This document shows, piece after piece, positions 2,072 through 54,454 of a stretch of 57,756 nt of DNA (the first letter of the stretch is position 1; each line of letters begins with the position of its first letter). The notes under the pieces were generated by a model. That model was not told where the DNA came from, made no database searches, and saw only the letters and a list, made by a program, of their open reading frames with translations. A program made the translations under genes and the position numbers. The DNA lies in IMG/VR virus record IMGVR_UViG_3300037518_000144, positions 1 through 57,756 of that record; one strand, 5' to 3'. Source of the DNA: a virus. Taxonomy: Duplodnaviria > Caudoviricetes.

Positions 2072-3483
2072 TACGCTGCGCGCCTCGTGAACGGTCGAGC
2101 CCCGCGCGCCTCAAGCTGCGTATCGATCAACGTCACCTTGATCGGATCAGAGATGGCGCCGCGGTAAACCCGATCGAAAGATGATCCCAACTGCGGCCAG
2201 ATAACACGTTGCTGGTGCTCGCCTATCTTGCCTACCTTTCTATTTGGAAGCGCCTGCCACGTTCTACCGCCGTCATCCGACACGTCCATCATCATCTCAG
2301 GATCTGATCCCTGGCCAGTCGTGAGACCTACGCCGGTCTCCATGATGACTTCCAACCTATCGTGGAAAGCTCGATTGCCTTCCGCGTACACCGGCTGATA
2401 CGTCCACTCCATGCGCTGCGTCGTTCCCCAATCGTCATAAGTCGTCGGCGATAGGTAGCCAATGCGATTGCTCGACACATCACCGACCAGTTCGAGTCCG
2501 GCGAACTGCGCGTGACTCCATGCGAGCCAGTAGGCATAGCCGTAGGTCTCGCGCTCGTGCCATTCCTTCGTCGAGGCGTCATAGACGAAGGTGCCCTCAG
2601 GGAAGGTCAGCACATAGAACAAGTGCCCTTCCTGTGAGTACGAGAACGCCTGCCCTGACCCGATCGTGACGGAGCCAAGCGCTTGCTCTATGCCTGTTTG
2701 GCTGATACGAACCGGCGTGATGCCATCCAAGCGCCTGACGGTGTAATCCTGAGCAAGCCAGAATACGGTGTTGTCCTGCTTTGCTGCCGTCTGGCCGTTG
2801 AAGCAACCCTGCTCAACGAATCCATTCGAGGCGCGTGCAAAAGGAAATCCAGCCCCCCCGACGAGTTCCCATATCTCGACGGTCTCTTCTCCCATCAATA
2901 GTACTTGCCGGTGATCGACGATCAGCCCAACAAGATCGTCAGGAGAAGCCTCCGCCGTGGCGAAATTCAGCGAGTTGAAAGAGGTTGCCGATCCGACATC
3001 AGCGCAGAAGAAGCGTCCAGAGTCAGGCTCGACAAACAGCAAGTAGTTGTCGAGGAAATCCGCATCCAATGCGCCGCGAGACGTGAAATCCGCATCCGTG
3101 ATCTGTCCAAACGTAGACGTACTTGTGTCGTAGTAGTACGCGTTCGGCTGATTCACCACGACAATGGTCGTGATGTTGTTGATGATCTTGACGCGATTTG
3201 CTACGCCAACCGTTCCTATCTCTGTGACGGTCTTGTTCGAATCGACTCGATAAAGTTTCGTGCCTGAAACCACCCATAAATAGCCCAGCGCTTTCTTCAG
3301 CGCTACGATTGGGCCGGTACCCACTGTCACCCATTCCCCAATGCCAGGACAGCGAACCAAGGCATACGGTCGCTTCGCCCCTTTCGGAAGCAAGTCAGCA
3401 AAGCAATTAACAAGGCGCGATGGACTGGCTGGACGTGATCTGAGGCGATAGCTGTGGAAAGGCAAATCTAAAGAAGCCATCAC
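2071..3483 (-). CDS. Packaged DNA stabilization / tail hub protein (P22 gp10-like)
   Basis: 470 aa, beta-propeller-like, with FATAEASPDDL and SDDGGRTW..GKIGE motifs. Synteny. Confidence 0.85.
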   Translation of the reverse strand: MMASLDLPFHSYRLRSRPASPSRLVNCFADLLPKGAKRPYALVRCPGIGEWVTVGTGPIVALKKALGYLWVVSGTKLYRVDSNKTVTEIGTVGVANRVKIINNITTIVVVNQPNAYYYDTSTSTFGQITDADFTSRGALDADFLDNYLLFVEPDSGRFFCADVGSATSFNSLNFATAEASPDDLVGLIVDHRQVLLMGEETVEIWELVGGAGFPFARASNGFVEQGCFNGQTAAKQDNTVFWLAQDYTVRRLDGITPVRISQTGIEQALGSVTIGSGQAFSYSQEGHLFYVLTFPEGTFVYDASTKEWHERETYGYAYWLAWSHAQFAGLELVGDVSSNRIGYLSPTTYDDWGTTQRMEWTYQPVYAEGNRAFHDRLEVIMETGVGLTTGQGSDPEMMMDVSDDGGRTWQALPNRKVGKIGEHQQRVIWPQLGSSFDRVYRGAISDPIKVTLIDTQLEARGARPFTRRAA

Positions 3484-3896: not shown

Positions 3897-4469
3897 CTAT
3901 GCAGCCCTCGCCTGATCATCGTCCCATTTATTACTCTTGGTCAGATTCTCAAGTCTGCGGATTACGCGCAGATTACCCAAGACATGCAACCCGCTAACGG
4001 TGCGACCATGAAGTGGAATTATGTGATCAACATTCCATGACTCTCCGGTTTTCCGTGTCATCGCAGATGCAAGCTCATACAGCTTGGCAATAGCCCTCAA
4101 ATCGGCCCACTTCGGTGTTCTTTTCCCCTTCGATAGATATCGGACGCGAGCCTCGGCGGTAGCCTTGCCTGGATTTCGTTTTTGCCATTTCTTGCGATCC
4201 TTGCGTGCCTGCTCGCGAACCCTGTCGGTGTTTGCTTTTTTCCACGCTACCTTCGCCTCCGCATCCTTATCGGGGTTAGCTTTCGACCACGCTCTGCAAC
4301 TCTCGTTATGCTTCTGCAGGCTCTTCCTTTGCCACATTGCGATGCAACTAGCACACCCCCTTGTGGATACATATCTGTCCGAGATATGCCCGTTTTTGCA
4401 TGGCTTGCCAGTGAAGTACATGGCCTCCCAAGCCAGAACTGCGGCCTTTCGTGTTACTACATTTTTCAC
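3897..4469 (-). CDS. HNH homing endonuclease
   Basis: YFTGKPCKNGH N-terminal motif and C-terminal VDHIIPL..GLHVLGNL..N. Confidence 0.85.
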   Translation of the reverse strand: MKNVVTRKAAVLAWEAMYFTGKPCKNGHISDRYVSTRGCASCIAMWQRKSLQKHNESCRAWSKANPDKDAEAKVAWKKANTDRVREQARKDRKKWQKRNPGKATAEARVRYLSKGKRTPKWADLRAIAKLYELASAMTRKTGESWNVDHIIPLHGRTVSGLHVLGNLRVIRRLENLTKSNKWDDDQARAA

Positions 4470-5225: not shown

Positions 5226-5746
5226 TTAACGCCTACCCCTAAAAGGTTGTAGTCACCGAGTCTCTGTGTCTTCACCTTCGCAAAGCCCGCCGCCTCCAGG
5301 GCAACCTTAAGTGTTTCCGAAATGAACCCAGTTCGATGAAGCATGTGCGGATTGTCCATCCCGTCGTGGCCATAAAACATATGCAGACCAGTGATCGGCC
5401 CAACGGCTGCTTCGTACAGCACTTCATTTGTCGGGCGCACGCCTTCCAAGTCTGGAACAACAATCATTGCATAACCGCCTGACGCCAGAACGCGCACAAA
5501 CTCACGTAGTGCTGAAATGCCATCAGCTGGTTTGAGATGTTCGAGCGAATGACTGCACCAAATGGCGTCGAATGGTCCGATAGCTCCAATATCGGACATG
5601 CTCGCAACAACATCAGGGGCAGTGCTTGGATCGATATCAAGCCGTGTCTCGGTGCATCCATGCAGAAACTCGGGAAGCGGTGTTTTTCCACAACCCGCAT
5701 GCAGCACACGGCGCGGCCCAGTGTATTGGACATATTGAGCGCTCAA
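5222..5746 (-). CDS. Class I SAM-dependent methyltransferase
   Basis: VLHAGCG motif I, LDID, FDAIWCSHSLEH, RVLASGG. Confidence 0.85.
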   Translation of the reverse strand: MSAQYVQYTGPRRVLHAGCGKTPLPEFLHGCTETRLDIDPSTAPDVVASMSDIGAIGPFDAIWCSHSLEHLKPADGISALREFVRVLASGGYAMIVVPDLEGVRPTNEVLYEAAVGPITGLHMFYGHDGMDNPHMLHRTGFISETLKVALEAAGFAKVKTQRLGDYNLLGVGVK

Positions 5747-6354
5747 GCACGCACCTCCGACAATATACGAGCGCCTTTCCGTAGATTTTCTGTAATCGTG
5801 ACAACGCGAAGGTTGTCTTGGTGATGCAGTCCGCCGCGACTAAGTGGCACGATGTGATCGACGTGATGCCTTATGCCGGTTTCTCGTGTCAATCTCGCGG
5901 ACTCCTCATAAAGCGCCGCGATGGCGTCAAAATTTGCGTCTGGCGGCGTTTGGCCACGAATCCGTAGAGTTCTCATGCGAGTGTGCGCATAAGAACGAAC
6001 CGGATTCTTTTTGTGCCACATCCGAGTGATGTCTAGATTCTTTTCGCGATTCTCATGCTTCCATCGCATGGAGGCAGCGAACATTTTTTGTTTGTTTTTT
6101 TCGTAGTGCTTGCGTTGCGAGGCGCGAATTTTATCTCCGTTCTTCTCTCCCCACTCACGCAAACGACGATTGCTGCGATCCCTGAACTCAGGATCTGTCC
6201 GATATCGCTCACGTTCCTTGGCGGCATTACAGGCCCTGCAAGACTGGCCTGCTCTGCCTCGTTTTGATGGAGAAAACAACTCAACTGGCCTTTCGGCGGA
6301 ACATCCCTTGCAGAATTGAGCTGCTTTCATCGCCCTTATGCCCCGCCTTTCCAA
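5743..6354 (-). CDS. HNH homing endonuclease
   Basis: CxxC..CxxC N-terminus and HVDHIVPLSRGGLHHQDNL..N. Real start probably near 6330. Confidence 0.85.
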   Translation of the reverse strand: MERRGIRAMKAAQFCKGCSAERPVELFSPSKRGRAGQSCRACNAAKERERYRTDPEFRDRSNRRLREWGEKNGDKIRASQRKHYEKNKQKMFAASMRWKHENREKNLDITRMWHKKNPVRSYAHTRMRTLRIRGQTPPDANFDAIAALYEESARLTRETGIRHHVDHIVPLSRGGLHHQDNLRVVTITENLRKGARILSEVRA

Positions 6355-6581
6355 AGGCCAATGGCTGCTAATGTGTTCATGATCTCAATCATCGCTGCCT
6401 TCATGTCAGACGTAACGTCAGTGGATGATGCCGTACCAACAAGCGATGTCGCCTGTGCGGCCCCGGCTCGCTGAGTGATGGGCGTCGTACCGTAGAAGCC
6501 CGCTGTTCCGTTGGTACGATGCTCCAGGACATCGATCTTTTTGTGCGACGTCGAAACGCCGAACGTTTCCTCGGTAGGCAT
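6336..6581 (-). CDS. Small virion (head decoration/fibre) protein, paralog 2
   Basis: Downstream of coat. Highly similar to 6581-6808. Confidence 0.6.
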   Translation of the reverse strand: MPTEETFGVSTSHKKIDVLEHRTNGTAGFYGTTPITQRAGAAQATSLVGTASSTDVTSDMKAAMIEIMNTLAAIGLWKGGA

Positions 6582-6808
6582 TAGGCACCCCCATTCCAGA
6601 GGCCAAGCGCCTCCAGTGTATCCATAATCTCAATCACCGCGGCTTTGAGATCACTTGTCACATCGGCTGACGATGCTGTGCCGACTAGTGACGTTGCCTG
6701 AGCTGCGCCTGCGCGCTGCGCGATCGGTGCGATACCGTAAAACCCGGCCTTGGTGTCCGGCAACTGCACGCCGTCTGGATTGCCGTCCCCAAGTTGATTA
6801 ATAGCCAT
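6581..6808 (-). CDS. Small virion (head decoration/fibre) protein, paralog 1
   Basis: QLGDGNPDG..GFYG..P motif. Good RBS (GAGGAG). Confidence 0.6.
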   Translation of the reverse strand: MAINQLGDGNPDGVQLPDTKAGFYGIAPIAQRAGAAQATSLVGTASSADVTSDLKAAVIEIMDTLEALGLWNGGA

Positions 6809-6829: not shown

Positions 6830-7489
6830 TCATTCAACATGCTTCCAACTGCGTCTCTTGCGAATGTCGCAGATGGTTTGCGCCGTAACGCCGTGTTTGA
6901 CGGCGAGTCTGCCGTACGTCTCTGTGCTTGCTCGAATCTCGCGAACGATTTCCGGTGTGATGTTGTCGCTGACGCCGCGCCTCGGACTCACCCGAACGGA
7001 TTTCTTTCGCTCTCCGTTCAGATGCGTCCATGACACGCCATTCTTGATGCTGCCAACAGTAGAGGCAGCAATGCCGTACTCCTCGCCGATGGCAGCATAA
7101 GGTCGCGTGTCCGCCAAAATGGCCGTGGCTTGCTCTTCCGTGAGAATGGCGTGACCTGCCCGCTCTCCAAAAGCCGGCTTCTGCCGGCCGCGAACAATCA
7201 TGTCCTGCGTATTGTCGATCGGCCTGCCTAACGACAGATGATCGATGCGCACGCATGCAGGGTTGTCGCACGAATGCCTTACGTGACTTCCAGGAGGAAT
7301 CAGAATCATGTTTTGCAGCATCCACGCTGCTCTCGGGGCGCGGGTATGACGCTTTCCAAAGAGCCTGCAATTGAAGATTCCATACCCATCCTTGTCTTTC
7401 TTCCCGGTCCACTTCCAGCATCCATCCGACCTTCCCACATTTGCCAGAAATCTCCGCATTGTCTTCTCGATTCTCACAATATTCTCCAC
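6830..7489 (-). CDS. HNH homing endonuclease with C-terminal HTH repeats
   Basis: GCWKWTG..GYG, HSCDNPACVRIDHL..N, plus two HTH-like repeats ending in SWxH. Confidence 0.85.
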   Translation of the reverse strand: MENIVRIEKTMRRFLANVGRSDGCWKWTGKKDKDGYGIFNCRLFGKRHTRAPRAAWMLQNMILIPPGSHVRHSCDNPACVRIDHLSLGRPIDNTQDMIVRGRQKPAFGERAGHAILTEEQATAILADTRPYAAIGEEYGIAASTVGSIKNGVSWTHLNGERKKSVRVSPRRGVSDNITPEIVREIRASTETYGRLAVKHGVTAQTICDIRKRRSWKHVE

Positions 7490-7565: not shown

Positions 7566-8765
7566 TCAGCCGTCAGCGTGCAATCGGCTAGCGAGTTGTG
7601 CGCGCAAGGTAGCCGATCCAAACAGAACGTCTATCCTGCACGGGTGTTGGTCATTGTTGATGTCGTAGGCACGAATGATGCGCATGCTGATCCCGTCGTA
7701 GACCTCCCGAGCTGCGAACGACACTCCTTCAGGGAGGATGAGATCGGCCGTCCCGAAGCAGAACGCGTCCTTGTGATAGCCCATCGAACTAGTGAGCAAC
7801 TCACTTGCGCCAGCACCGATCTTGTTCACGGCACCGGTAGTGGTCGGACTTGCAGCTACATTCTGTGCACCCCCGCTGGTGATGATCGATGGAGAGATTG
7901 CCAGCGTCGTCGCATTTGCACCGGAGTCCGCCGTGATGACGAACTGCTGCAGTTGGCCGGTATCGATCTTCGTTTCAGGGTGTACGCGGTTGCATCCGGC
8001 AAGCGTGATCACGTCGCCCTTGAGGAACGTCGTGGTGCCCGTTCCAACCGTCAGTGACGCGCCGGTCTGGTTGGCGCCGTTGACGTTGTACAGCGTGTCA
8101 CCCTCGACAGCCGTGCCGGTCGTGTGATCCAACACATGTGTGGACTGGAAGAAGTCGAACATGGCCGACTTACCCATACGGCCTTCCTTGTACTGCATGG
8201 ACAGAACATCCTGCGGATTGAACAATCCCTTGATCTGATCCACCAGTCCGACCTGATGCGTGGTAGACAACAGCATGGTGCGCTGCTCGTCTTCTGGCGC
8301 CAGGTTATCGTCCAGCTTCTGCTTCGCCAGCAGCACGCTTCTCAGCGTCGGCGCAACGCCATTCTGGTTGACGAGGTTGTACACATCCTTGTACCTCGCA
8401 GCCCAGACGGTGGACTCCATGTAAGCGGCAATCGTCGCCATCGCCGGTGTGATGATGCGCTCTGAGAACTGATCCAGATCCAGCGTCAGTTCCTGCGACG
8501 TGAAATTGATATCAACACCCGCCTGGCTGCTGATCTGGAAGGTAACGTTGCGTTCGACGTTGTCCTGCACGCTGAGGGTGCGACCGGTGCGAATCGTGTA
8601 CTGATTGGGCAAACGGATGCGCAAGGTGTCGCCGATTTTCGCGCCTTCCTGTGCGAACTGGTTATCGTAGCCGCGGTTGATTGAACCGATGAATCTGAGT
8701 TTCTGGTGGAGGACTCGCAAAGCCTCCCTTGTGATCTGATCGACAGTGAGAGTTGTATTGGACAC
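7566..8765 (-). CDS. Major capsid protein (P22 coat family)
   Basis: 399 aa with KIGDTLRIRLP and RIDVLFG motifs. Follows the scaffold gene. Confidence 0.92.
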   Translation of the reverse strand: MSNTTLTVDQITREALRVLHQKLRFIGSINRGYDNQFAQEGAKIGDTLRIRLPNQYTIRTGRTLSVQDNVERNVTFQISSQAGVDINFTSQELTLDLDQFSERIITPAMATIAAYMESTVWAARYKDVYNLVNQNGVAPTLRSVLLAKQKLDDNLAPEDEQRTMLLSTTHQVGLVDQIKGLFNPQDVLSMQYKEGRMGKSAMFDFFQSTHVLDHTTGTAVEGDTLYNVNGANQTGASLTVGTGTTTFLKGDVITLAGCNRVHPETKIDTGQLQQFVITADSGANATTLAISPSIITSGGAQNVAASPTTTGAVNKIGAGASELLTSSMGYHKDAFCFGTADLILPEGVSFAAREVYDGISMRIIRAYDINNDQHPCRIDVLFGSATLRAQLASRLHADG

Positions 8766-8797: not shown

Positions 8798-9658
8798 CTA
8801 CCTAGATTGGCGTTTAGCCAGAATCTGTTTGGTTCGATGTTGCATCCAATCGTTGATGGACAGTTTGGACGGATCAACTTCTCCGCCCGCTCCACCACCG
8901 ATTGGCGTCGGCGGGGCCGGCGCAGCGGTGACTTTCGGGGGAGGAGCTGGACGCGATAGGTCGGCTGCGATGCGGCCGAGACTGGCTAAGCGCTGGGGAA
9001 CAGACTGACTAGCTAGCTTTGCCACCAATGCCGGTGACTTGCTGATGTGATACGCGAGCTGCGGGCCAATCTCGTCGGCCTTGAGGGCCTCAAGAAAGTC
9101 GCCGTTGAAGAAGTTCAGCGCCGGGTTTCTGATCGCGTCGAAGTAGTCCGGAGTTTTCTCCGCGAACTCCTGTTGACGCAAACCGAATCCGTCATTGAGC
9201 GCCCGCAGTCGGGTCTCTTCACTGGCTTTCGCAAGTCGCTTATCGGCCGCAGTGTCCGCGTCCTTCTTCGCCTGTTCGGCGATCTGCTGAATTCGCTTTT
9301 CGGTCTTGCGGTCATGCCAAGCCGTGTATGCCTTGGTGTAAACCTTGGGATCTTCGAACTCATCAGCGTCGGGCTCAGGATCTGGGGTCTCCTGAACAGG
9401 AGCAGCTACTGCCGGCTGTCGGTCTCGTTCCTCGAAGCGCTTGCGCCAATACTCGCCGTACTCTTCTGCGGCCTTTGATCGCGCGTGTAGCTCCTCGATA
9501 CGCTCCTGGGCCCGGTTGGGCCTCACGCCGTCTGGAGCGTCGGCGATTGCCGCTTGCGGTGCGGCACCCGAAGTCACCTGATCGACAGCTGGAGAAGCTG
9601 CCGCGGCTGGTGGAGCCGTACCCTCTTGCGCTTGGGGTGGTGCGAGTTCGTCGGACAT
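8798..9658 (-). CDS. Scaffolding protein
   Basis: Coiled-coil, P/A-rich, basic C-terminal tail. Directly upstream of coat. Confidence 0.8.
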   Translation of the reverse strand: MSDELAPPQAQEGTAPPAAAASPAVDQVTSGAAPQAAIADAPDGVRPNRAQERIEELHARSKAAEEYGEYWRKRFEERDRQPAVAAPVQETPDPEPDADEFEDPKVYTKAYTAWHDRKTEKRIQQIAEQAKKDADTAADKRLAKASEETRLRALNDGFGLRQQEFAEKTPDYFDAIRNPALNFFNGDFLEALKADEIGPQLAYHISKSPALVAKLASQSVPQRLASLGRIAADLSRPAPPPKVTAAPAPPTPIGGGAGGEVDPSKLSINDWMQHRTKQILAKRQSR

Positions 9659-9768: not shown

Positions 9769-10237
9769 CTATGCGCGCTTGATCTGCTTCCACTGGATAA
9801 CGTCGCCGGATACCAGTTCGAAGGCATCAACACCTAGTCCGCACGTATGCGTGTGTAGACTTGCGACCTCAACCGCGCGTCGTGCATCGGCACCCATGGC
9901 AAGGGCGCCTAATGCAACCTCTCGGCCAGATCCCCAAGCGCCATAGGGATCCTCGCAAGCAATCGGTTCAGGCGTGCGCTCGTAAAACACAACGCCGCCG
10001 GGTGCGGCAATGACAAGCAGAGCCCAGTCATCCGTCTTCTGAAATGCCGGGAATTTATCCTTGTCGGCGCCATCGAGATACCAAGCGATGAGCCCTTGGC
10101 CCCTCGCCACGCCCGCCGCACCACGCAAACACCTTATCTTCTACGCGCCGAAGCTTGGTGCAAGTAACGGCAGTATCGCCGCAGCATGCCATCTTGTCGG
10201 CGGCGAGCGTGTGGCCATCCCAGGCTATGACAGTTAT
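9769..10237 (-). pseudogene. Ntn-hydrolase/proteasome-subunit-like phage gene, disrupted
   Basis: TVIAWDGHTLAADK and GAWGSGREVALGALAMGA are in different frames, and the expected start reads ATA. Confidence 0.7.
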
Positions 10238-10428
10238 GGCACTTCTCCAGTCTTCGGCTCCGTCCACATCGGGACATTCCTCAACCCTTCCGCATTCAGT
10301 GCGGCCCGTTCGTCTTCCGTCATGCCGCGCATGAGCGGTGCTTGCGCCAACTGCATCGCCTCAATCTCAGCCTGTGGAACCGCCAGCAAATTCCGGCTCA
10401 TGGCGGCGATGAATTCAGCGTCAGTCAT
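10234..10428 (-). CDS. Hypothetical protein
   Basis: ATGA-coupled within the operon. Confidence 0.5.
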   Translation of the reverse strand: MTDAEFIAAMSRNLLAVPQAEIEAMQLAQAPLMRGMTEDERAALNAEGLRNVPMWTEPKTGEVP

Positions 10429-10817
10429 ACGCGATATTCCTGCATATTGGTATCGTAGTCAGCGCTGCGCATGGGACCGGGCGTGAACTCGTACGTCTGC
10501 CCGGTGACCTTCTCGACATGATCGGCGAGAACCTTCAGTGCAGGCTCTATCTCAGCCTGAGTTGGCACGCGACCGCGTGAGCGAATATCCACGCCAAACT
10601 GCTGTGTGCGCTCCGTAAAGCGGCCATCTGGACCGATGAGAATATCAAACCGGTGCATATAACGGCCCATGTCATAAGCGAACACATGTCGAACTTTCGC
10701 CGATTTTGCTACTAACGATAGCAATTCATCTGCCGCCGCTGCGGATTTTAGTTGCAATCCACTGGCGGTTACCGCACAGAGCGAACTCAGTCCGGCAAGG
10801 AAGTCTCGGCGGTTCAC
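10425..10817 (-). CDS. Protein with twin-arginine (Tat)-like signal
   Basis: MNRRDFLAGLSSLCAVTA matches the RRxFL consensus followed by a hydrophobic stretch. Confidence 0.65.
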   Translation of the reverse strand: MNRRDFLAGLSSLCAVTASGLQLKSAAAADELLSLVAKSAKVRHVFAYDMGRYMHRFDILIGPDGRFTERTQQFGVDIRSRGRVPTQAEIEPALKVLADHVEKVTGQTYEFTPGPMRSADYDTNMQEYRV

Positions 10818-12221: not shown

Positions 12222-12356
12222 TCAGGACCCTTGCTTTGCGAGGTACTCAACGGCCGCACGCCGCAATATCTCCGCAACTGGAACTCCAGTCCGTTTCGAC
12301 AGCGCCTTGAGTTGTTTCAGCAGCTTTTCCGGAAAGTGTACGTTCGTGCGTATCAT
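12222..12356 (-). CDS. Ribbon-helix-helix (Arc/CopG-like) regulator, 44 aa
   Basis: MIRTNVHFPEKLLKQLKALSKRTGVPVAEILRRAAVEYL. Below the ORF-track size cutoff. Confidence 0.8.
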   Translation of the reverse strand: MIRTNVHFPEKLLKQLKALSKRTGVPVAEILRRAAVEYLAKQGS

Positions 12357-12407: not shown

Positions 12408-14501
12408 CTACACCCTAGCTTGAATCCTCTGCATCTCCCTCGGTTGCGACAGTTCATTCCCTTGCATGTACTTCATCAGCTGCAACCTTCCGGTCCTTGG
12501 GTCAACACTAATTTCTCCGGCCAGCTGCATGTTCTGCAACTGCTGAAAGATCGTCTCAGCAATTAGCTTCTGCAGCTCCTGCGGCTTCATCTTGGCATCA
12601 ATGGAAGCTGTCGCAGTATTGACCTGCGTCTGCTGTGCCTGTGCTTGTGCTCGCGCCGCCTCCGCGTTGAGCTTGCTTGCCAGCGCTTCTTGCATTGGAT
12701 CAGGGGGTGGCGGTTCCTGCGGCTGCATCGCCTTCTCTTCGTCTGTCATCTGATCTGGCGGGATAACGCCTTGCTGAATCAGCGGGATTCGCAGGCGTCG
12801 CTCCAACTCATCGGCGCCCTTGAAGTCGAGCGACTTGGCAATGAGGTCGGAAGCCATGTTCTTAACGGCCTCAGAAGTCGAGGCGAACTTGAGCAGATAG
12901 TCAGCGGCCTGCTGACGCTGCGTCGTGTAGGCAGGGCCGACATCCACGGCCACGTCATACCGACCTTGCGACAGATCGTTGATCAGCTTGCCGTCCTGCC
13001 CGCGCTGGTTGATGTTCTCGAACGCCTCTTTGCCGTCGATGCCCAGGATGCGGACAACGCGCTCGCCGTCGTAAACCTTCGGGATCATGTCCACTAGAAT
13101 CTCACCGGTGTACTTGATCGATTCGGCAAGGTTATCGATAAACTCATACGAGCTGACATCGCCCTCGGTATTACGCTGCCTGATTGCGCCCGGCAGTTCA
13201 TTCGCCTGCGGCTCGCCCAAACTAGGCCCAAACTTACCCGTGCTCGCCTTGATGTCATCCGCCGCCTGCTGCGACAACGCAATCAACGCGTTGGGAATAT
13301 CCGGCATCGCCTCGCGCGATGGCTTGCCACCACCGGGAAGATCCTTGACCGCGTTGTAGTAGAGGAACAGCGGGTTTTTAGCGTTCGCCTCCCGCCACGA
13401 ATTCTCGTAGCCCTTGACCTGAGCTGGCGTCACCATGTACGGCGAGCGCGGCACCATCGCGACGGCTTCAATCTCCGCCGTCCGCGCGCCGTTGTAGGCT
13501 TTCTGCGGGTCTTTCGCCTTCCGAACTAGCCCGCGGTACTTGCGTTTGCCCTCGATGTTCGTGACGCGCCCGTAGATCGGTACGATGGGAATGTACTTCC
13601 ATTCGTAATCGATCGGGCCATCAATGATTCCGGCGCCAGATAGCTTCCACCAGCGCACGTACGTCGTGTCTGCCTCACGCTTCTTCAGCACGCGAATCGG
13701 CTTGATGCCAGATCCAGGCGGAGGGTCTCTGAGCTCCTGCTCAATGACCTTGATTGTGTCGTAATCGATTACGCGGCCATCGTCTAGCAGCGCCAGCGTC
13801 TTCTTTCGGCGCATGCGCTTGTAGTACTCGGCGACACGCACCTCCTTGTCATTGATCCAATCGTGGTCGTGCTGCGCCAGATCTAAATCCGAGCCCTGAA
13901 TATCCTTGTATTGTGCATCGTGCAAATCCTTGGAGATGCGCTCGGTAACAAGCGCCCACTCGGCATCTCGCTTCAGGTAGTCCTTGGCTGAAGGATCGAA
14001 GTGAACCGTGAACGGATTCTCTATGCGACCGATACACAGCTCCTGGTCGAAACTGTCATCGACGTACTTTGGATACACGCGCCACGCGCCAAATCCACCC
14101 TTCAGCGCGAAGTCAAAGCCGGTGTTGTATGCAGTCTTCGCCGATGAATTGCGCTCGATCGCTCGAATCAAGCCCTCAAAGATCTCCGCCTTCTTCCTGT
14201 CCGATTTGCTGTCGATCGGCAGAATCTTAATCTGTGGCGAGTTCTGACGCTGATCGCCCTTGACTTGGTCAATTGCAATTGAGGTGCGGTCGAAGGAATA
14301 ACACGGTCGCGAACCGCGCGCCTTGCGCACCTCGCTGTCCCACTGCGCGCCTTCCTCATCTACAAATCGAATATCCTCAAGCGCAAGCTCTCGGTTCGTC
14401 CCGTCAGCTGAAATCGAGCGGCTATAGTTATCCTTGACCTCGGCCAACAACTTAGCCGAAGTCTCTGCGTTCGTGGGGCGCGGCATGCTAGGCGTTAGCA
14501 C
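12408..14501 (-). CDS. Portal protein (P22 gp1-like)
   Basis: 697 aa with GAQW..RP, IPIVPIYG, GLVRKAKDPQKAYN and YDVAVDVGPAYTTQRQ motifs. Confidence 0.93.
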   Translation of the reverse strand: MLTPSMPRPTNAETSAKLLAEVKDNYSRSISADGTNRELALEDIRFVDEEGAQWDSEVRKARGSRPCYSFDRTSIAIDQVKGDQRQNSPQIKILPIDSKSDRKKAEIFEGLIRAIERNSSAKTAYNTGFDFALKGGFGAWRVYPKYVDDSFDQELCIGRIENPFTVHFDPSAKDYLKRDAEWALVTERISKDLHDAQYKDIQGSDLDLAQHDHDWINDKEVRVAEYYKRMRRKKTLALLDDGRVIDYDTIKVIEQELRDPPPGSGIKPIRVLKKREADTTYVRWWKLSGAGIIDGPIDYEWKYIPIVPIYGRVTNIEGKRKYRGLVRKAKDPQKAYNGARTAEIEAVAMVPRSPYMVTPAQVKGYENSWREANAKNPLFLYYNAVKDLPGGGKPSREAMPDIPNALIALSQQAADDIKASTGKFGPSLGEPQANELPGAIRQRNTEGDVSSYEFIDNLAESIKYTGEILVDMIPKVYDGERVVRILGIDGKEAFENINQRGQDGKLINDLSQGRYDVAVDVGPAYTTQRQQAADYLLKFASTSEAVKNMASDLIAKSLDFKGADELERRLRIPLIQQGVIPPDQMTDEEKAMQPQEPPPPDPMQEALASKLNAEAARAQAQAQQTQVNTATASIDAKMKPQELQKLIAETIFQQLQNMQLAGEISVDPRTGRLQLMKYMQGNELSQPREMQRIQARV

Positions 14502-14805
14502 CCATGCGGGATGGAATGCGAATTCTCACCGTATCGCCTACCTTTATTGCATTTGTCATGCGTGCAAACGAACCGTCATACCGACGAGCAACAAGCGCAT
14601 CGAATTGCATATTCTTGTGCAGCACTCTCAATGCCTCACGTGTGATCAATTCTGGCGTGAGCAGTAAATTGCCTCGCGCCCACCCGCCTGCTGGCGGCAG
14701 GAAGAATGCCTTGCTTGGCGTCCACAATTCCTCGACCAACCCAGATGGGATAACGGCTGCCGAAGTGGCAACGCCCAGCAGCGAAAGAAAGCCACGGCGG
14801 TTCAT
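14488..14805 (-). CDS. Tat-signal protein fused to a copy of the coat N-terminus
   Basis: MNRRGFLSLLG signal followed by ITREALRVLH..YD..FA..K.GDT.RIR.P, shared with the coat. Coupled to terL (ATGA) and overlaps the portal start. Confidence 0.75.
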   Translation of the reverse strand: MNRRGFLSLLGVATSAAVIPSGLVEELWTPSKAFFLPPAGGWARGNLLLTPELITREALRVLHKNMQFDALVARRYDGSFARMTNAIKVGDTVRIRIPSRMGANA

Positions 14806-16262
14806 GCGAAGTCGCTCATCGGTGCGTGAGTCTCGACGTATGGCGCGGGCTTGGTCGTGGCGAGGCTGAGGCCGGACATGATGCCGTAACGTAAAGCGTC
14901 ACATAGATGGTCGTTCGACTTCACTATTCGTCCTTTCTCATCGCGCCTATACAACCGGTATTCCGCAAAGAAGCTCTGACATGTCTTGAAGATCTTCAAC
15001 CGTCCGCCTGATAGGCGCTGCCATACCGCGTAGATACCAGACTCGACTGCGTTGTCGGCAGCAGTAAGATTCAATCCAAGATCTTGATACTGCTGCATCA
15101 GTTGCTCGCCATCCATCTGTGATCGACCCCTAGCAGCCGGGTCTATTACACCAACGATCCAATCTCCACGAGCGCGAATCGCCTCGGCATGCACGGAAGG
15201 CTCGGCCTGCCCGCGATAATGTTCGGAGTACGCGTAAACGGTCTGCGACTCGCGATCTATTGCTAACCAGATTGCTGCAGTTCTTTGCCAGCCAACGTCC
15301 AGCGCATACACCCGAGGCCAATGCTCCGGGATATCGAAGTTATCGACCGTGATATCAGACTCTGGCACCGGGAAAATGGCACCGCTCCCAAGTTGGGGAA
15401 TGCCCTTCGACCGCGCGTCACGCTGGTACGGCGGGATCGAATCCCAGAGCAAGTCCTTCTGCTGTTTTGTTAAATGTGGCGCGTCATCCCATGACGCCAT
15501 CACGACGAAGTGCTTGGCCTTCTCAACGTCACCGTCTGGCAGATAATGCAGAACGGTTTCGCTCAACCCCTCAAGGGGCGTAAACGTACACAGCATCAGT
15601 CCATTCGTCGTCATGAGACGAATGAGACATTCCGTGTAGATCCCCAGCGGGGGCTCTTCATCAAGCCAGATGCCGTCCTGCTCCGTGCCCTGGAACGCCT
15701 CGCGCTTCTGGTCGTACGACTTCAGCTGAATGACTGAAGTACCGCCCGACTTGTGCTTGACGTAGATGTGCTCGACCGCATCCGCAATGCCCTGCTTCGG
15801 CGTCGTGCGGATGATGTTCGCGGCAGGTATCAATCCTGTGCCCTGTGATGCCACGTCACCAGGAGGCCCAAGCAATTTCGCCTGGATGATGTCGCGAACG
15901 GTCTTTGCGGTATCGCCTGCTGCCCACCATTTGGTCGGCTTGCTGAATCGATGCCCAACCCACCAGGTCGGGTATTCGCCAGTCATGTGCAACACGACTT
16001 CGTACCCGCCGACGCCCTCGCTCTTGCCGACGCGATTCGCCGCCAGCATGCAGCGTTCTTTCTCAGTAGCGCCAGCAGCGAAGAACTCGCAGTGCTTAAC
16101 GTACAACTCCCGCCTCAGCGGCCCCTCGTCAGGGTAGTAGCTGTACAGCTTCTCGCGCTCAGTGAGTCGTTGGTACGCCAGGGTCAGGTCCAGCAGCTCC
16201 CTCGCTTCGGTCTCCGTCAAGGCGGCTAGATGCTGCGGCGTAAAGGCCGGTAAGGCGTTCAA
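14802..16262 (-). CDS. terL: Terminase large subunit (P22 gp2-like)
   Basis: Walker A AANRVGKS, Walker B IWLDEEP, nuclease LDVGW..DHLCDALRY. Confidence 0.95.
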   Translation of the reverse strand: MNALPAFTPQHLAALTETEARELLDLTLAYQRLTEREKLYSYYPDEGPLRRELYVKHCEFFAAGATEKERCMLAANRVGKSEGVGGYEVVLHMTGEYPTWWVGHRFSKPTKWWAAGDTAKTVRDIIQAKLLGPPGDVASQGTGLIPAANIIRTTPKQGIADAVEHIYVKHKSGGTSVIQLKSYDQKREAFQGTEQDGIWLDEEPPLGIYTECLIRLMTTNGLMLCTFTPLEGLSETVLHYLPDGDVEKAKHFVVMASWDDAPHLTKQQKDLLWDSIPPYQRDARSKGIPQLGSGAIFPVPESDITVDNFDIPEHWPRVYALDVGWQRTAAIWLAIDRESQTVYAYSEHYRGQAEPSVHAEAIRARGDWIVGVIDPAARGRSQMDGEQLMQQYQDLGLNLTAADNAVESGIYAVWQRLSGGRLKIFKTCQSFFAEYRLYRRDEKGRIVKSNDHLCDALRYGIMSGLSLATTKPAPYVETHAPMSDFA

Positions 16263-45330: not shown

Positions 45331-45420
45331 GGTCAGGTGGCAGAGTGGTCGAATGCAACTTCCTCGCACGGAATTTCGCTTTTGGCGACGCCGCAGGTTC
45401 GAATCCTGTCCTGACCTCCA
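45331..45420 (+). tRNA. Atypical tRNA: Ser-like class II body, CGC (Ala) anticodon, U73
   Basis: Acceptor GGTCAGG/CCTGACC-T-CCA; D arm GCA-GAGTGGTCGAA-TGC; loop CT-CGC-AC on a weak stem; variable arm TCGC-TTTTG-GCGA; T arm GCAGG-TTCGAAT-CCTGT. Confidence 0.78.
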
Positions 45421-51246: not shown

Positions 51247-53217
51247 TTAGGGCAGCAGCTCCACCGTCAGCATCTTAAGTGTCACCGTGTCCGCTCCTGC
51301 TGGCGTTGCGCGTACGCCGACATCCAAGGCGGTTGCCGTGTCTTCTGCAGCCGTACCGATGAACGGCAGGGCAGTCGCGCCGTTGAACCCAACGCCCTGC
51401 ACTCGCTGCGATGTTTCAGACACATTCAATACTTCTGCTTCAAAGTACCAACTGTTGGTATCGTTGGCGTCCGCATTGAATGTGAAATCGGTTGACCCGA
51501 AACGGAATGCAATGGTCTTGTTTCCAGCGCTACCCGTCTTGGTCCCGCTTCCTTTCACGCGAATGCCGCGCGTGCGGTCCATCCTGGCCGCGGGCAAAGT
51601 AAGTGATAATGACCCCGCGCCTGGGCCTGTAGCGACCTGATCCGAGGCAGTGCGCAGTATAAGTGCCGAATAGTCAGCCGTTGGGGTTGAGGCACCTGCT
51701 AACTGCTCAGGCGTGGTTACGCTGCGATAGGAATTTGTTCGCACAATTGGGGATGCACCAACGATCTGTAGCCCTGTTGACCAATTCTCGAAGTGGTTCC
51801 CTATAACCGTGACATTCGCGACGGTGGCCGGAGCGGCAATAGCTGTGCCTACGCTGATATCGTGACCGTAGAACGCGTTGTTCTTAATGAGTAGATTGGT
51901 TGAGTTCGTCGAACTGTCGTTTAGTTTTATCGCCTGCTCGCTGGCACTTGGCGCATTCACCTTTACGAACGTATTCCCTTGTATGGTTAAGAACGATGCG
52001 TCCTCAATGACGCAAATGTCCTGATCGATAGTCTGAATGAAGTAGTTGCTTTCAGCGGTACAGAAATTTGCAGTCGTCGAGAGCTTGATTATCTCCGCAG
52101 ATCCAGTGACCGACCCATAGCCAAGGTTCCCGCGGAATACGACGTGAGAGCTGGCGGCAACATAGAAGCACGCTCCATGCCCAGCTACGCAGTCCTTGAC
52201 GAAGTTGTCGGAGGCAATACAACGTGTAGACGTTGAGAACGCAATTCCCTTTCCGCCAGAGTTATTGATGATGTTCCCGTGGAAAAGGATCTGCTCGGCC
52301 GTAAGGCTGTTGCCCTGGCATCGAAGGCTGGTCGTAAATACGCCGGTGCTGCCGCCTGAGTCAACACCGCATTCGTCCATAAAATTGTAGGCTGCAACTG
52401 CGTGCTTCATGTCTTCGAAGTACACGCCTGGACCGCGCATTTTCGTATACTTACCAGATAGCACTTGCACGTCTGTTGTGCCCTTAACCCGCAGTCCTTT
52501 TGCTACCTCGTTGCCATGGAGATTGATGCCGCGAAACCGAGATCCGGCAACTGCAGCATTATCTGCGTCGATCATCCAGCTGGCATCATCGACAGATGCC
52601 GGATTCGGAAATGATGCAAGCGCTTTGATTTGCGCGCCTGCCGCCATCTCGATATTTATCTTCCCGTCGATCGTCAGAGTACTGCTGATACCGTAGGTGC
52701 CAGCAACGATCAGTAGCTTTTCGCCAGATACAGTCGCTGCATCGAAAGCGGCCTGTAGTTCTGCTGTGTCATCAGCTACACCGTCGCCTGTCGTACCAAA
52801 GCGGCGCACATCACCAGGTGCATCTGGGTTGCGGGAAAAGTTCACCGGCGTCACGACCGTGGCGATCTCGGCGGCGGTGCGCGGATACAGATATCCACCG
52901 ATGATTGCCTGCGATAGTACCCGGTCGTTCACTGGGTCTACGGCTGGATATATCTCTACATCAGCGCTATCTGTGAATGTCACCCGATACAGAATGTCGG
53001 GGTTCAGATAGATCGGCGGAAAGCGTCCTGCAGCATCGGCAATGACAGGGTTTGTGTGCGGTGTCGTGAGCGCAGAATCTTGGTAGGTGTCTGTCGGCGT
53101 GGAAGTGCCGGTCAGAAAGAAACTAACCTTTGCGCCAGCGACGAGCGTTAAGTTGTCGCTGATTGCCGTTGCTTTTGGCAGGCGGAAGATTTGGTGGGCC
53201 ATTAGGTTATATCCCAA
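51247..53217 (-). CDS. Tailspike with a pectate-lyase-like beta helix
   Basis: DVRRFG..GDGVADDTAELQAA motif, N-rich beta-helix repeats, N-terminal NPVIADAAG head-binding-like domain. Confidence 0.85.
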   Translation of the reverse strand: MGYNLMAHQIFRLPKATAISDNLTLVAGAKVSFFLTGTSTPTDTYQDSALTTPHTNPVIADAAGRFPPIYLNPDILYRVTFTDSADVEIYPAVDPVNDRVLSQAIIGGYLYPRTAAEIATVVTPVNFSRNPDAPGDVRRFGTTGDGVADDTAELQAAFDAATVSGEKLLIVAGTYGISSTLTIDGKINIEMAAGAQIKALASFPNPASVDDASWMIDADNAAVAGSRFRGINLHGNEVAKGLRVKGTTDVQVLSGKYTKMRGPGVYFEDMKHAVAAYNFMDECGVDSGGSTGVFTTSLRCQGNSLTAEQILFHGNIINNSGGKGIAFSTSTRCIASDNFVKDCVAGHGACFYVAASSHVVFRGNLGYGSVTGSAEIIKLSTTANFCTAESNYFIQTIDQDICVIEDASFLTIQGNTFVKVNAPSASEQAIKLNDSSTNSTNLLIKNNAFYGHDISVGTAIAAPATVANVTVIGNHFENWSTGLQIVGASPIVRTNSYRSVTTPEQLAGASTPTADYSALILRTASDQVATGPGAGSLSLTLPAARMDRTRGIRVKGSGTKTGSAGNKTIAFRFGSTDFTFNADANDTNSWYFEAEVLNVSETSQRVQGVGFNGATALPFIGTAAEDTATALDVGVRATPAGADTVTLKMLTVELLP

Positions 53218-54454
53218 CCGGATAGGTTATGGTCCAACCGGACGAAAGTCCTTTTGTACCAGATGCAGTAAATCCAGCCGCATCTCCATTGACTCCTAGT
53301 CCGAAAGTTACAACACCATTAGTCCCCACGGTGGCCCAGCCACCAACAACCGCCCCGTTATCGATCAGATTTGTACAATGGACCGTTATTTGATTTGCCG
53401 GCCTGATGGCCGTAGGTACTGCACTAAGCGTCATGCCCGTACTGTCAGATGTTGTTGATTGTATATTTGCGTTGATCTGCAAGGTAATTAAGTGACCTAG
53501 GCGCCTATAGAAAACATCTCCAGTTGGATTGGAAGAAAACCCAAATAGTGTTCCCGTGTAGCCGTCGTTCAGCGTGCTTACACTTGTGAGTGTTGACTGA
53601 ATCCACTCGTTAGTTGCCGTCTTCGTGATGAAGCACGACATAGCCGGCTCGATAGTTATTTGCCCATCGATAAGCGATCCTGCCCCAAATCCATACAGCG
53701 TTACACCAACCGACCGGGTTACGCCAAGATTGGCATTGCTTCTGTTGATTACCTGAATGCTGGTCCCAACGTCGAATTCCACGCTTGAGTTGAGCGGAAT
53801 CGTCCACGTATACGATGACGAATCTGAGTGCAAAACAATGTTGTTAGCATCTGCCAATACAAATGTGTAATTGGCATTCTGAATGTTAACAGTTGGTAGT
53901 CCGCTAACTTTTTGGGAATTGACGAGAAGAAAACCTGTGCCGAAGTCGATCGTAGGTGATGACGTTCCGCTACGACTCAATGTGGCTATCGCAGTCGCAA
54001 CACTCTCCGCATCGTTCAGCAAATCAATCGTCATCTGCTGAGCATTAACCCGCAACCTCCATTTCTGGTTGTTAGCAGCGGCGTCCGTCTCCTCAAAGAT
54101 CAATTCAGGAGCTGCAGACTTCAGCCTAAACGTCTGCGCCTGATTTTGATTAGACGGCACATCATCGATTGGGTAGCCGGGCTGCGTCACATCGTCCGAG
54201 TCGGTCAGCAGGACGCGGTAGCTGGGGAGCGCCGGATCAAGGTAAATTGGGCCGAAAGCACCAGCGCCGTCAGCAATCACAGGATTGCTGTGCGGGACGG
54301 TTAGATCTTCATCGGTGTATACATTCTGTAAGGTGGACGTACCAGAGATGGAAAACGTAAGCTTCGCCCCTGGCAGCAGCTGATTCGTCGATGACAGAGC
54401 TACGATGCGAGGTAATGTGAATAAAGCGGGCACTACGACCTTCCATAAGCGCAA
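53207..54454 (-). CDS. Tail fibre/second receptor-binding protein
   Basis: N-terminus paralogous to the tailspike. Start probably GTG near 54433. Confidence 0.75.
   Translation of the reverse strand: MRLWKVVVPALFTLPRIVALSSTNQLLPGAKLTFSISGTSTLQNVYTDEDLTVPHSNPVIADGAGAFGPIYLDPALPSYRVLLTDSDDVTQPGYPIDDVPSNQNQAQTFRLKSAAPELIFEETDAAANNQKWRLRVNAQQMTIDLLNDAESVATAIATLSRSGTSSPTIDFGTGFLLVNSQKVSGLPTVNIQNANYTFVLADANNIVLHSDSSSYTWTIPLNSSVEFDVGTSIQVINRSNANLGVTRSVGVTLYGFGAGSLIDGQITIEPAMSCFITKTATNEWIQSTLTSVSTLNDGYTGTLFGFSSNPTGDVFYRRLGHLITLQINANIQSTTSDSTGMTLSAVPTAIRPANQITVHCTNLIDNGAVVGGWATVGTNGVVTFGLGVNGDAAGFTASGTKGLSSGWTITYPVGI

Follow-up and report, generated by a model that had tools for sequence, protein, structure and literature searches.

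What might a phage do with a small gene whose product begins like an export signal and ends like its own coat protein? The question is raised by the IMG/VR virus record IMGVR_UViG_3300037518_000144 (Duplodnaviria; Caudoviricetes), a whole virus record of 57,756 bases that is called the window here. Judged from its gene content the phage is a P22-like podovirus, with an Sf6-type small terminase, a large terminase (terL), a P22-type portal, a phrog_8865 scaffold and a PF11651 coat, as well as a head-closure protein, a DNA-ejection protein, tailspike-like genes, a repressor-like gene and a replication-initiator (lambda O-like) gene. Between terL and the portal gene lies P0001 (14488..14805; window genes are on the minus strand unless stated otherwise), whose 105-amino acid product had been described in a first-pass annotation as a twin-arginine (Tat) signal fused to a copy of the phage's own coat N-terminus. 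Our analysis bears this description out and extends it, and we are highly confident that the protein consists of three modules, namely a Tat-type leader, a conserved linker and a tail that is an old copy of part of the phage's own major head protein. As to function, we tentatively favour a mimic of the coat helix that docks the scaffold, routed for export and used in phage–host or phage–phage conflict, a role suggested by sequence which we regard as possible rather than probable.

A leader, a linker and a copied piece of coat protein

The tail (residues 46–100; 14506..14670) is a copy of the coat N-arm, the loop that follows it and the first strand. BLASTP aligned it to residues 3–55 (about 8601..8759) of the window's own major coat protein P0002, a P22-type protein of 399 amino acids (7566..8765; PF11651 at 1.4e-28), with 27/55 residues identical (49%), 38/55 similar, a single 2-residue gap and an E value of 8e-15. 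This agrees with the earlier hand count of about half identity to coat residues ~3–54. In an all-against-all BLASTP of window open reading frames (ORFs) of at least 50 amino acids, the two proteins formed one of only four paralogous pairs at E ≤ 1e-4, hence their likeness is far beyond chance. The PHROGs profile for phrog_283 (major head protein) was also matched at positions 3–55 (E 1.7e-6). The N-arm signature is evident in the tail stretch LLLTPELITREALRVLHKNMQF, to be compared with the coat consensus NTLLTPxxITREALRVLHxKLxF, and the wider consensus LLT..ITREALRxL..NL.F....NR.YD is retained. Glu57 (E57) of the tail helix is at least 90% conserved in an alignment of 64 family sequences. P0001 gave no match over the whole PF11651 coat profile (~400 amino acids, HK97 fold; 24-bit threshold), and from its sequence it is best described as a fragment of this family rather than a member.

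An AlphaFold2 (AF2) model of P0001 (pTM 0.31) contains one confident element, a helix at residues 51–65, which appears to correspond to the N-arm helix of the P22 coat protein; the remainder is predicted not to fold alone. A complex prediction of the coat with the tail (residues 44–105) gave no verdict (score 0.00 in both runs, made without controls). According to the available text of two P22 studies, the coat N-arm (residues 2–30) forms a helix that docks the C-terminal helix-turn-helix of the scaffold, with D14, E15 and E18 binding scaffold R293 and K296, and on maturation it unfolds and extends into the neighbouring subunit (PMC9965877, PMC12005531). By analogy with P22 (PMC9965877, in the text available), the scaffolding protein P0003 of the window (8798..9658; phrog_8865 head scaffolding protein, E 1.2e-33) is likely to be the natural partner of the window coat N-arm.

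Ahead of the tail, family alignments delimit a conserved linker, EELWTPSKAFFLPPAGGWAR (residues 25–44; 14674..14733), with the motif ELWxPxKxFFLPPAGGW in the P0001 family. P37 never varies across 24 sequences, in which P30, F35, L36 and W42 are conserved to at least 90%, and across 64 sequences L36, P37 and P38 are at least 90% conserved. A sister subfamily carries LDPERLLWVPGxKTIFLP instead. PPAGGW may call to mind the TolB boxes of colicins, and KTIFLP those of TonB, a likeness to which we attach no weight. A DNA pattern search with FLPPAGGW returned 15 stretches and added little.

The leader (residues 1–24; 14734..14805) opens the translation MNRRGFLSLLG, and 20 uncharged residues separate its twin arginines from Glu25. 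The Tat signal consensus is S/T-R-R-x-F-L-K, and P0001 has N-R-R-G-F-L-S at residues 2–8. R3, R4 and F6 are invariant in the 64-sequence alignment, M-N-R-R-G-F is invariant in 24 word-search matches, and variants elsewhere in the family (TRRQFL, KRRGFL, SRRKLL) retain the arginine pair while other residues differ. The leader narrowly passes the NCBIfam profile TIGR01409 (17.1 bits, cut-off 16.7), and by these features it satisfies most of what is expected of a Tat signal. Among other leader ORFs, TIGR01409 scored P0155 at 18.2 bits, the ORF of contig L008 at 17.2, P0171 at 15.7 and the ORF of contig L007 at 13.3, with no match for P0046. The sole Pfam row for P0001 at E ≤ 0.1 was PF25471 (Rieske PetC membrane anchor, E 0.061).

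The gene is as tightly coupled to its neighbours as first annotated. Its ATG overlaps the stop of terL (14802..16262; Terminase_6N, Terminase_6C) as ATGA, and the likely ATG of the portal gene (12408..14486; PF16510 at 2.6e-166) lies at 14486, one base past the P0001 stop. An alternative portal start, GTG at 14501 in the ORF list, would give a 14-base overlap with P0001. DNA homology with the closest relative, L157, picks up again at 14486, and by this comparison the 318-base gene reads as a clean insertion set precisely at the junction of the terL stop with the portal ATG.

A broad family with modular tails

The first-pass annotation had named confinement to this genome as grounds for dropping the idea, and had called for a homolog search; that search shows the fusion to be widespread. 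A word-indexed protein search found 23 small relatives (88–123 amino acids, 37–65% identity), the closer of which match P0001 over its full length at 60–65%, and when 1.84 billion representatives were searched exhaustively with HMMER, 422 cluster representatives matched at E ≤ 1e-3, 25 of them at E ≤ 1e-10. Among the 150 matches listed of these 422, 126 carry an RRxhh leader within the first 60 residues (median length 110 amino acids), 23 are coat N-termini and one is an N-terminally truncated relative. The word search found no longer forms of the family; such forms turned up in the exhaustive search. No separate small gene of the P0001 type was found in 50,697 deposited phage records, where queries matched coat genes or nothing, nor was a relative found in scans of genome contigs, and the ESM Atlas returned unnamed viral clusters only, below 0.9.

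A full-text literature search retrieved no description of leader-tagged capsid fragments, in line with the earlier remark that no characterised example was known. A paper on a periplasmic anti-entry effector mentions Tat signals, in the text available, only as an experimental tag (PMC13128918). The parts, a Tat leader and an HK97 N-arm, are well known; their combination is new and, as far as searched, a leader joined to a copied head-protein piece is unprecedented in print.

The tails themselves are varied. A P22-type coat HMM built here was used to scan 215 unique leader-bearing proteins, a set biased by the query, of which 129 contain a coat N-terminal piece only, 10 contain both coat ends (referred to here as mini-coats), six a middle piece (coat 237–307) and two the C-terminal strands (coat 352–395); 67 have no match to the coat HMM and one is unclassified. 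The ten mini-coats are 106–283 amino acids long, and nine of them (205–283 amino acids) match the coat from ~3 to 45–121 and again over ~337–389, with the middle third missing. In the AF2 model of one, P0155 (pLDDT 69.2, pTM 0.56), a helix at the N-terminus and a sheet at the C-terminus accompany a long pair of strands and a long helix. Foldseek found no match to this model in the PDB at E ≤ 0.001; phage capsid proteins headed its list (Douge gp8, E 0.014; Sf6 coat, 45 columns, rmsd 1.9). The mini-coats are defined by their HMM matches, with weak support from Foldseek.

Mini-coats bear on the idea that the leader is not an export signal at all. Leader and linker would then form an interaction peptide, for example for the portal, the terminase or the inner capsid surface, and the coat piece would plug into the lattice as an accessory virion or procapsid component. 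Mini-coats keep coat residues 3 to ~115 and ~340–388 without the middle third, in P22 terms (our own mapping) the N-arm, E-loop and P-domain without the A- and I-domains, a shape that might be expected beside a portal. The invariance of M-N-R-R-G-F, a linker conserved as strongly as the leader, and a gene that adjoins the portal gene in the window would suit such a component too. However, the Tat pattern is recognisable in the RRxFL motif, in the uncharged residues that follow and in the basic ones further on, three of the five relatives tested pass or nearly pass TIGR01409, the leader variants hold the arginine pair while other residues differ, and the gene, an optional one, has no fixed place beside the portal in other phages. 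We consider an interaction peptide quite unlikely.

Across contigs, the sequences indicate that the kind of tail goes with the kind of head protein present on its contig, which holds for five PHROG families. In the four of these other than phrog_283, the leader is joined to the N-terminal arm of the contig's own major head protein. The tail matches phrog_283 (P22 type) in the window and in L003, L026 and G015. With phrog_9953 in L008 it shares 62% identity with its own head protein over 42 amino acids (E 4e-16), with phrog_264 in L007/G004 60% over 25 amino acids (E 4e-10, residues 103–127 of the head-protein ORF), with phrog_14242 in G006–G009 40–51% over 35–56 amino acids (E 1e-8 to 1e-16), and with a phrog_133-like protease-head fusion in L098 59% over 29 amino acids. 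The L013 tail matches the interior of a 538-amino acid ORF of no known family. From these comparisons the family appears to be much broader than first annotated, and modular, with tails drawn from various parts of the coat and from further families of head protein.

In 21 whole or near-whole records, nine of 24 leader ORFs have a cis match at E ≤ 0.01, eight of these to the head protein. Tails copying the portal or terminase were considered and rejected, as the cis matches in this set are head proteins and one weak match of an unknown kind (G017). This matching of tail to head protein also speaks to a further proposal of the first-pass annotation, a Tat-translocon blocker. In such a blocker the leader would engage the Tat receptor, and bulky capsid material on the tail would prevent its passage and so jam host Tat export. 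The architecture alone, a Tat-type leader on a putative capsid-binding piece, would permit this. A blocker, however, would not need capsid pieces matching its own head-protein family and has no evident benefit, and we hold it to be very unlikely.

Several records carry two leader ORFs, arranged head to tail in G011 and G017, and in L025 and L021 a second leader copy adjoins the first. Head-to-tail pairs with unrelated tails were located at L025:2567-3210, L021:5982-6505, G017:10058-10843 and G009:3310-4206, and in their sequence organisation these pairs resemble a small cassette array. G011 (C1:49919-50035 and 51361-52038), a 56-kb record, holds its two leader ORFs in tandem; a 107-amino acid frame ~1.3 kb upstream aligns with no more of the P22 coat profile than its final 40 positions (E 8.6e-7). 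In G023 (L241, L242), another relative, the coat N-terminal match falls in two separate frames ~900 bases apart, and the coat gene there may be interrupted.

The window has a second small leader-bearing ORF of its own, P0171 (130 amino acids; 10425..10817), between portal and scaffold, which begins (V)NRRDFLAGLSSLCAV with a Tat-like leader that falls below the TIGR01409 cut-off. It has four homologues, and none was found in the best 80 portal-relative loci described below. BLASTP against the coat gave nothing; hhalign placed its residues 41–64 weakly on coat 360–385, the C-terminal strands (probability 41.7%, E 2.7e-4), and the coat HMM built here matched it at E 0.014. These profile matches are suggestive of a copy of the coat C-terminal strands.

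An optional gene in a shifting position

To place P0001 among relatives of the window phage we used the best 80 IMG/VR loci around related portals. No leader ORF occurs in any of the 80, where P0001 matches arise only via coat genes. Twelve of these portals are 64–89% identical to the window portal, and in eight of the ten junctions listed for the twelve the terL stop abuts the portal start. A 47-amino acid ORF separates the two genes in L167, and in L162 the upstream ORF, of unconfirmed terL identity, ends at the portal start. A close relative, L159 (2003-4001), has terL split in two ORFs by an inserted 180-amino acid ORF (2750-3292), which may be a homing-type insertion. The P0001 gene is likewise missing from all five whole records of close relatives (of which three reach 90% completeness or more), in which the family profile matches the coat N-terminus only. 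With 0/80 loci and 0/5 whole records carrying it, the gene is optional, and a core role in assembly is therefore unlikely.

In other phages the gene stands elsewhere. It lies among replication-type genes, distant from the head protein, in G006–G009 and G011 (neighbours named by eye from the ORF list), with leader gene and head protein on opposite strands in G006–G009, and inside the head-gene cluster, upstream of portal or terminase, in L003 and L026.

These positions are relevant to whether P0001 might be a non-essential assembly helper, with the N-arm copy binding scaffold or coat and the leader tethering it to the membrane or the Tat receptor, where it would act close to the portal to nucleate, position or tune the building of procapsids. 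T4 proheads do start on the membrane, the window gene is translationally coupled between terL and portal, L003 and L026 have it in the head-gene cluster, and the tail keeps the coat N-arm consensus. On the other side stand its absence from the close relatives, the portal loci and the deposited phages searched, its place among replication-type genes in G006–G009 and G011, and a leader with a positive N-terminus, which should put the tail outside the cytoplasm and away from capsids. We therefore see an assembly helper as rather unlikely. An assembly modulator had been among the roles first proposed, and the absence of the gene from close relatives weighs against any such role that the capsid needs.

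An optional gene of shifting genome position is also what would be seen for superinfection exclusion. Here the protein would be exported and cleaved, and the linker with its coat piece would act in the envelope as a periplasmic factor against incoming related phages or rivals. The uncharged stretch after the arginine pair has a median of 16 residues (range 7–29) in the 215 family proteins, a length better suited to a cleavable signal than to a membrane anchor, and in 197/215 a small-x-small candidate cleavage site lies no more than four residues from the first charged residue, a criterion that is loose in Ala/Gly-rich sequence. The linker, which would form the mature N-terminus, is conserved, and the window phage has repressor-like and replication-initiator genes. 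The coat N-arm, however, is inside the virion and has no known entry into the periplasm, leaving the factor with no evident target. Furthermore, direct terminal repeats occur in G006 and G010 and a large polymerase-like ORF (named by eye) in G006–G009, and these phages, if lytic, would gain less from exclusion. An exclusion factor is in our judgement unlikely.

Age of the copy and selection

When 135 N-arm segments were placed in a tree, its best division into small proteins and coats sorted 124 tips correctly (support 0.45). Within the P22-type family, cis and trans tail–coat scores are alike, and among 37 coats the tail's own comes only 8th, 24th and 23rd in three cis pairs. The copy is thus old and has not been homogenised with the coat, and gene conversion holding the tail close to its own coat was rejected on the same ranks.

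An old copy at 49% identity, missing from close relatives, could be a decaying and functionless relic of coat-gene duplication or recombination. Contigs of four DNA runs (14300–15000) differ inside the ORF at one position only, 14774, where C>T in one other sediment run gives the non-synonymous change G11D (the P0004 change), as might be expected of such a relic. Against decay, the frame is intact, full-length relatives exist at 37–65% identity, the motifs are common to hundreds of cluster representatives, and the same design recurs with five head-protein families. Nei–Gojobori dN/dS values were 0.07–0.32 in seven pairs of relatives, all from subfamilies other than that of the window. Neutral evolution had been named at the outset as a reason to abandon the idea, and for relatives in these other subfamilies purifying selection can be set against it. 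Judged by sequence, P0001 is a real protein-coding phage gene, and a relic, extremely unlikely in our view, is largely refuted.

Other genes of the window

The portal–scaffold stretch of the window holds what we take to be extra genes compared with the P22 gene order at the same position. An HslV-family peptidase-like ORF (9769..10128; phrog_1040, E 1.4e-13) lies directly ahead of the scaffold, and a 44-amino acid Arc-like repressor (12222..12356; phrog_3180) adjoins a 122-amino acid unknown. Immediately downstream of the coat gene is an HNH endonuclease (6830..7489; phrog_59, E 4e-30), and just downstream of the coat region two adjoining small ORFs (6336..6581 and 6581..6808) with 82% identity over 55 amino acids form a tandem duplication. 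Beyond the head genes, 3897..4469 and 5743..6354 are a paralogous pair (38% identity over 133 amino acids). Two neighbouring tail genes (51247..53217 and 53207..54454) have their first ~86 residues in common at 49% identity and the larger matches tailspike families; by sequence they look like two alternative receptor-binding proteins with a common attachment domain. A lone tRNA-Ala (CGC) gene is located at 45331..45420 on the plus strand.

Comparison with known systems

P0001 resembles bacterial Tat signal peptides (TIGR01409/PF10518) in its N-terminal RRxFL motif and in the uncharged stretch, itself followed by basic residues, that comes next. Most known Tat substrates are cofactor enzymes of the host, whereas the passenger of P0001 is a ~60-residue piece of phage shell protein that does not appear to fold alone. 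Its tail copies the stretch of a PF11651 coat equivalent to the P22 gp5 N-arm (residues 2–30) that docks the gp8 helix-turn-helix, and the confident helix corresponds to it; unlike that N-arm, the tail is detached from the coat fold and carries an export-type leader, and its scaffold binding is putative.

Two T4 proteins offer partial parallels. The Gol peptide of the major head protein gp23 triggers the Lit protease, and is likewise a short stretch from the N-terminal part of a head protein that acts alone as a ligand in phage–host conflict. Gol differs in being part of the full head protein, with no separate gene and no leader, and in activating defence. The vertex protein gp24, a second, whole-fold capsid paralogue, is likewise a divergent version of the major head protein that the genome retains beside the original, but it is a complete HK97 fold built into the shell and has no leader, whereas P0001 is a fragment only and its mini-coat relatives are coats without the middle third. 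The nearest published logic is that of SaPI1 CpmB, a small satellite protein that imitates one partner of the coat–scaffold contact and, in the text available, competes with the helper phage scaffold for a site on the capsid protein (PMC5744158). CpmB imitates the scaffold side, is satellite-encoded, has no leader and redirects capsid size, in contrast to P0001, which copies the coat side of its own phage and adds an export-type leader.

A possible role in conflict

We return to the tentatively favoured reading, an exported mimic of the scaffold-docking coat helix. The tail would still present the P22-type coat surface that docks the C-terminal helix-turn-helix of the scaffold in the procapsid, the same N-arm surface that would later reach into the neighbouring subunit. 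The leader would route P0001 to the Tat translocase in the inner membrane. Tat exports folded proteins and complexes, and P0001 might then leave the cytoplasm, possibly with a bound partner, or remain tethered to the membrane. In doing so it could titrate, tether or remove a protein that binds the N-arm, whether this is a capsid sensor of the host or a co-infecting relative's scaffold or coat. A role in conflict is favoured over one in core assembly because the gene is dispensable and its position mobile, lying among early replication genes in other phages.

A narrower form of this idea makes Tat a disposal or tethering route for immune recognition. The leader-tagged head-protein piece would bind a folded host sensor in the cytoplasm and drag it to or through the translocase, by the hitchhiker route. 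Each phage's decoy would then fit its own head-protein family, and tandem arrays would represent several decoys. We rate disposal through Tat as fairly unlikely.

Several observations weigh against an exported mimic. Export of P0001 is predicted from a marginal TIGR01409 pass, Pfam PF10518 (TAT_signal) gave no match at E ≤ 0.1, and G11D puts an aspartate into the hydrophobic stretch of the leader. Capsid mimicry is not the rule for the whole family, because only 8/24 leader ORFs have a detectably head-protein-derived tail, and the own-coat ranks and similar cis and trans scores argue against fine co-evolution of tail and coat. Binding of a coat fragment to a capsid sensor might set the sensor off instead of blocking it. 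The window gene is presumably co-transcribed with late head genes, as would also be expected for a role in assembly. Finally, a periplasm is assumed for the host and the binding partner of the tail is putative.

If an exported mimic is nevertheless what P0001 encodes, many uncultured phages would route pieces of their own shell proteins to the host export machinery, for which there is no described counterpart. These genes would then be a new class of small accessory phage genes, linking capsid mimicry with protein export, and could expose cellular recognisers of the coat N-arm, be they immune sensors, the scaffolds of rival phages or something else. Even without a function, hundreds of hypothetical small phage proteins can now be annotated as a leader, a linker and a copied piece of head protein.

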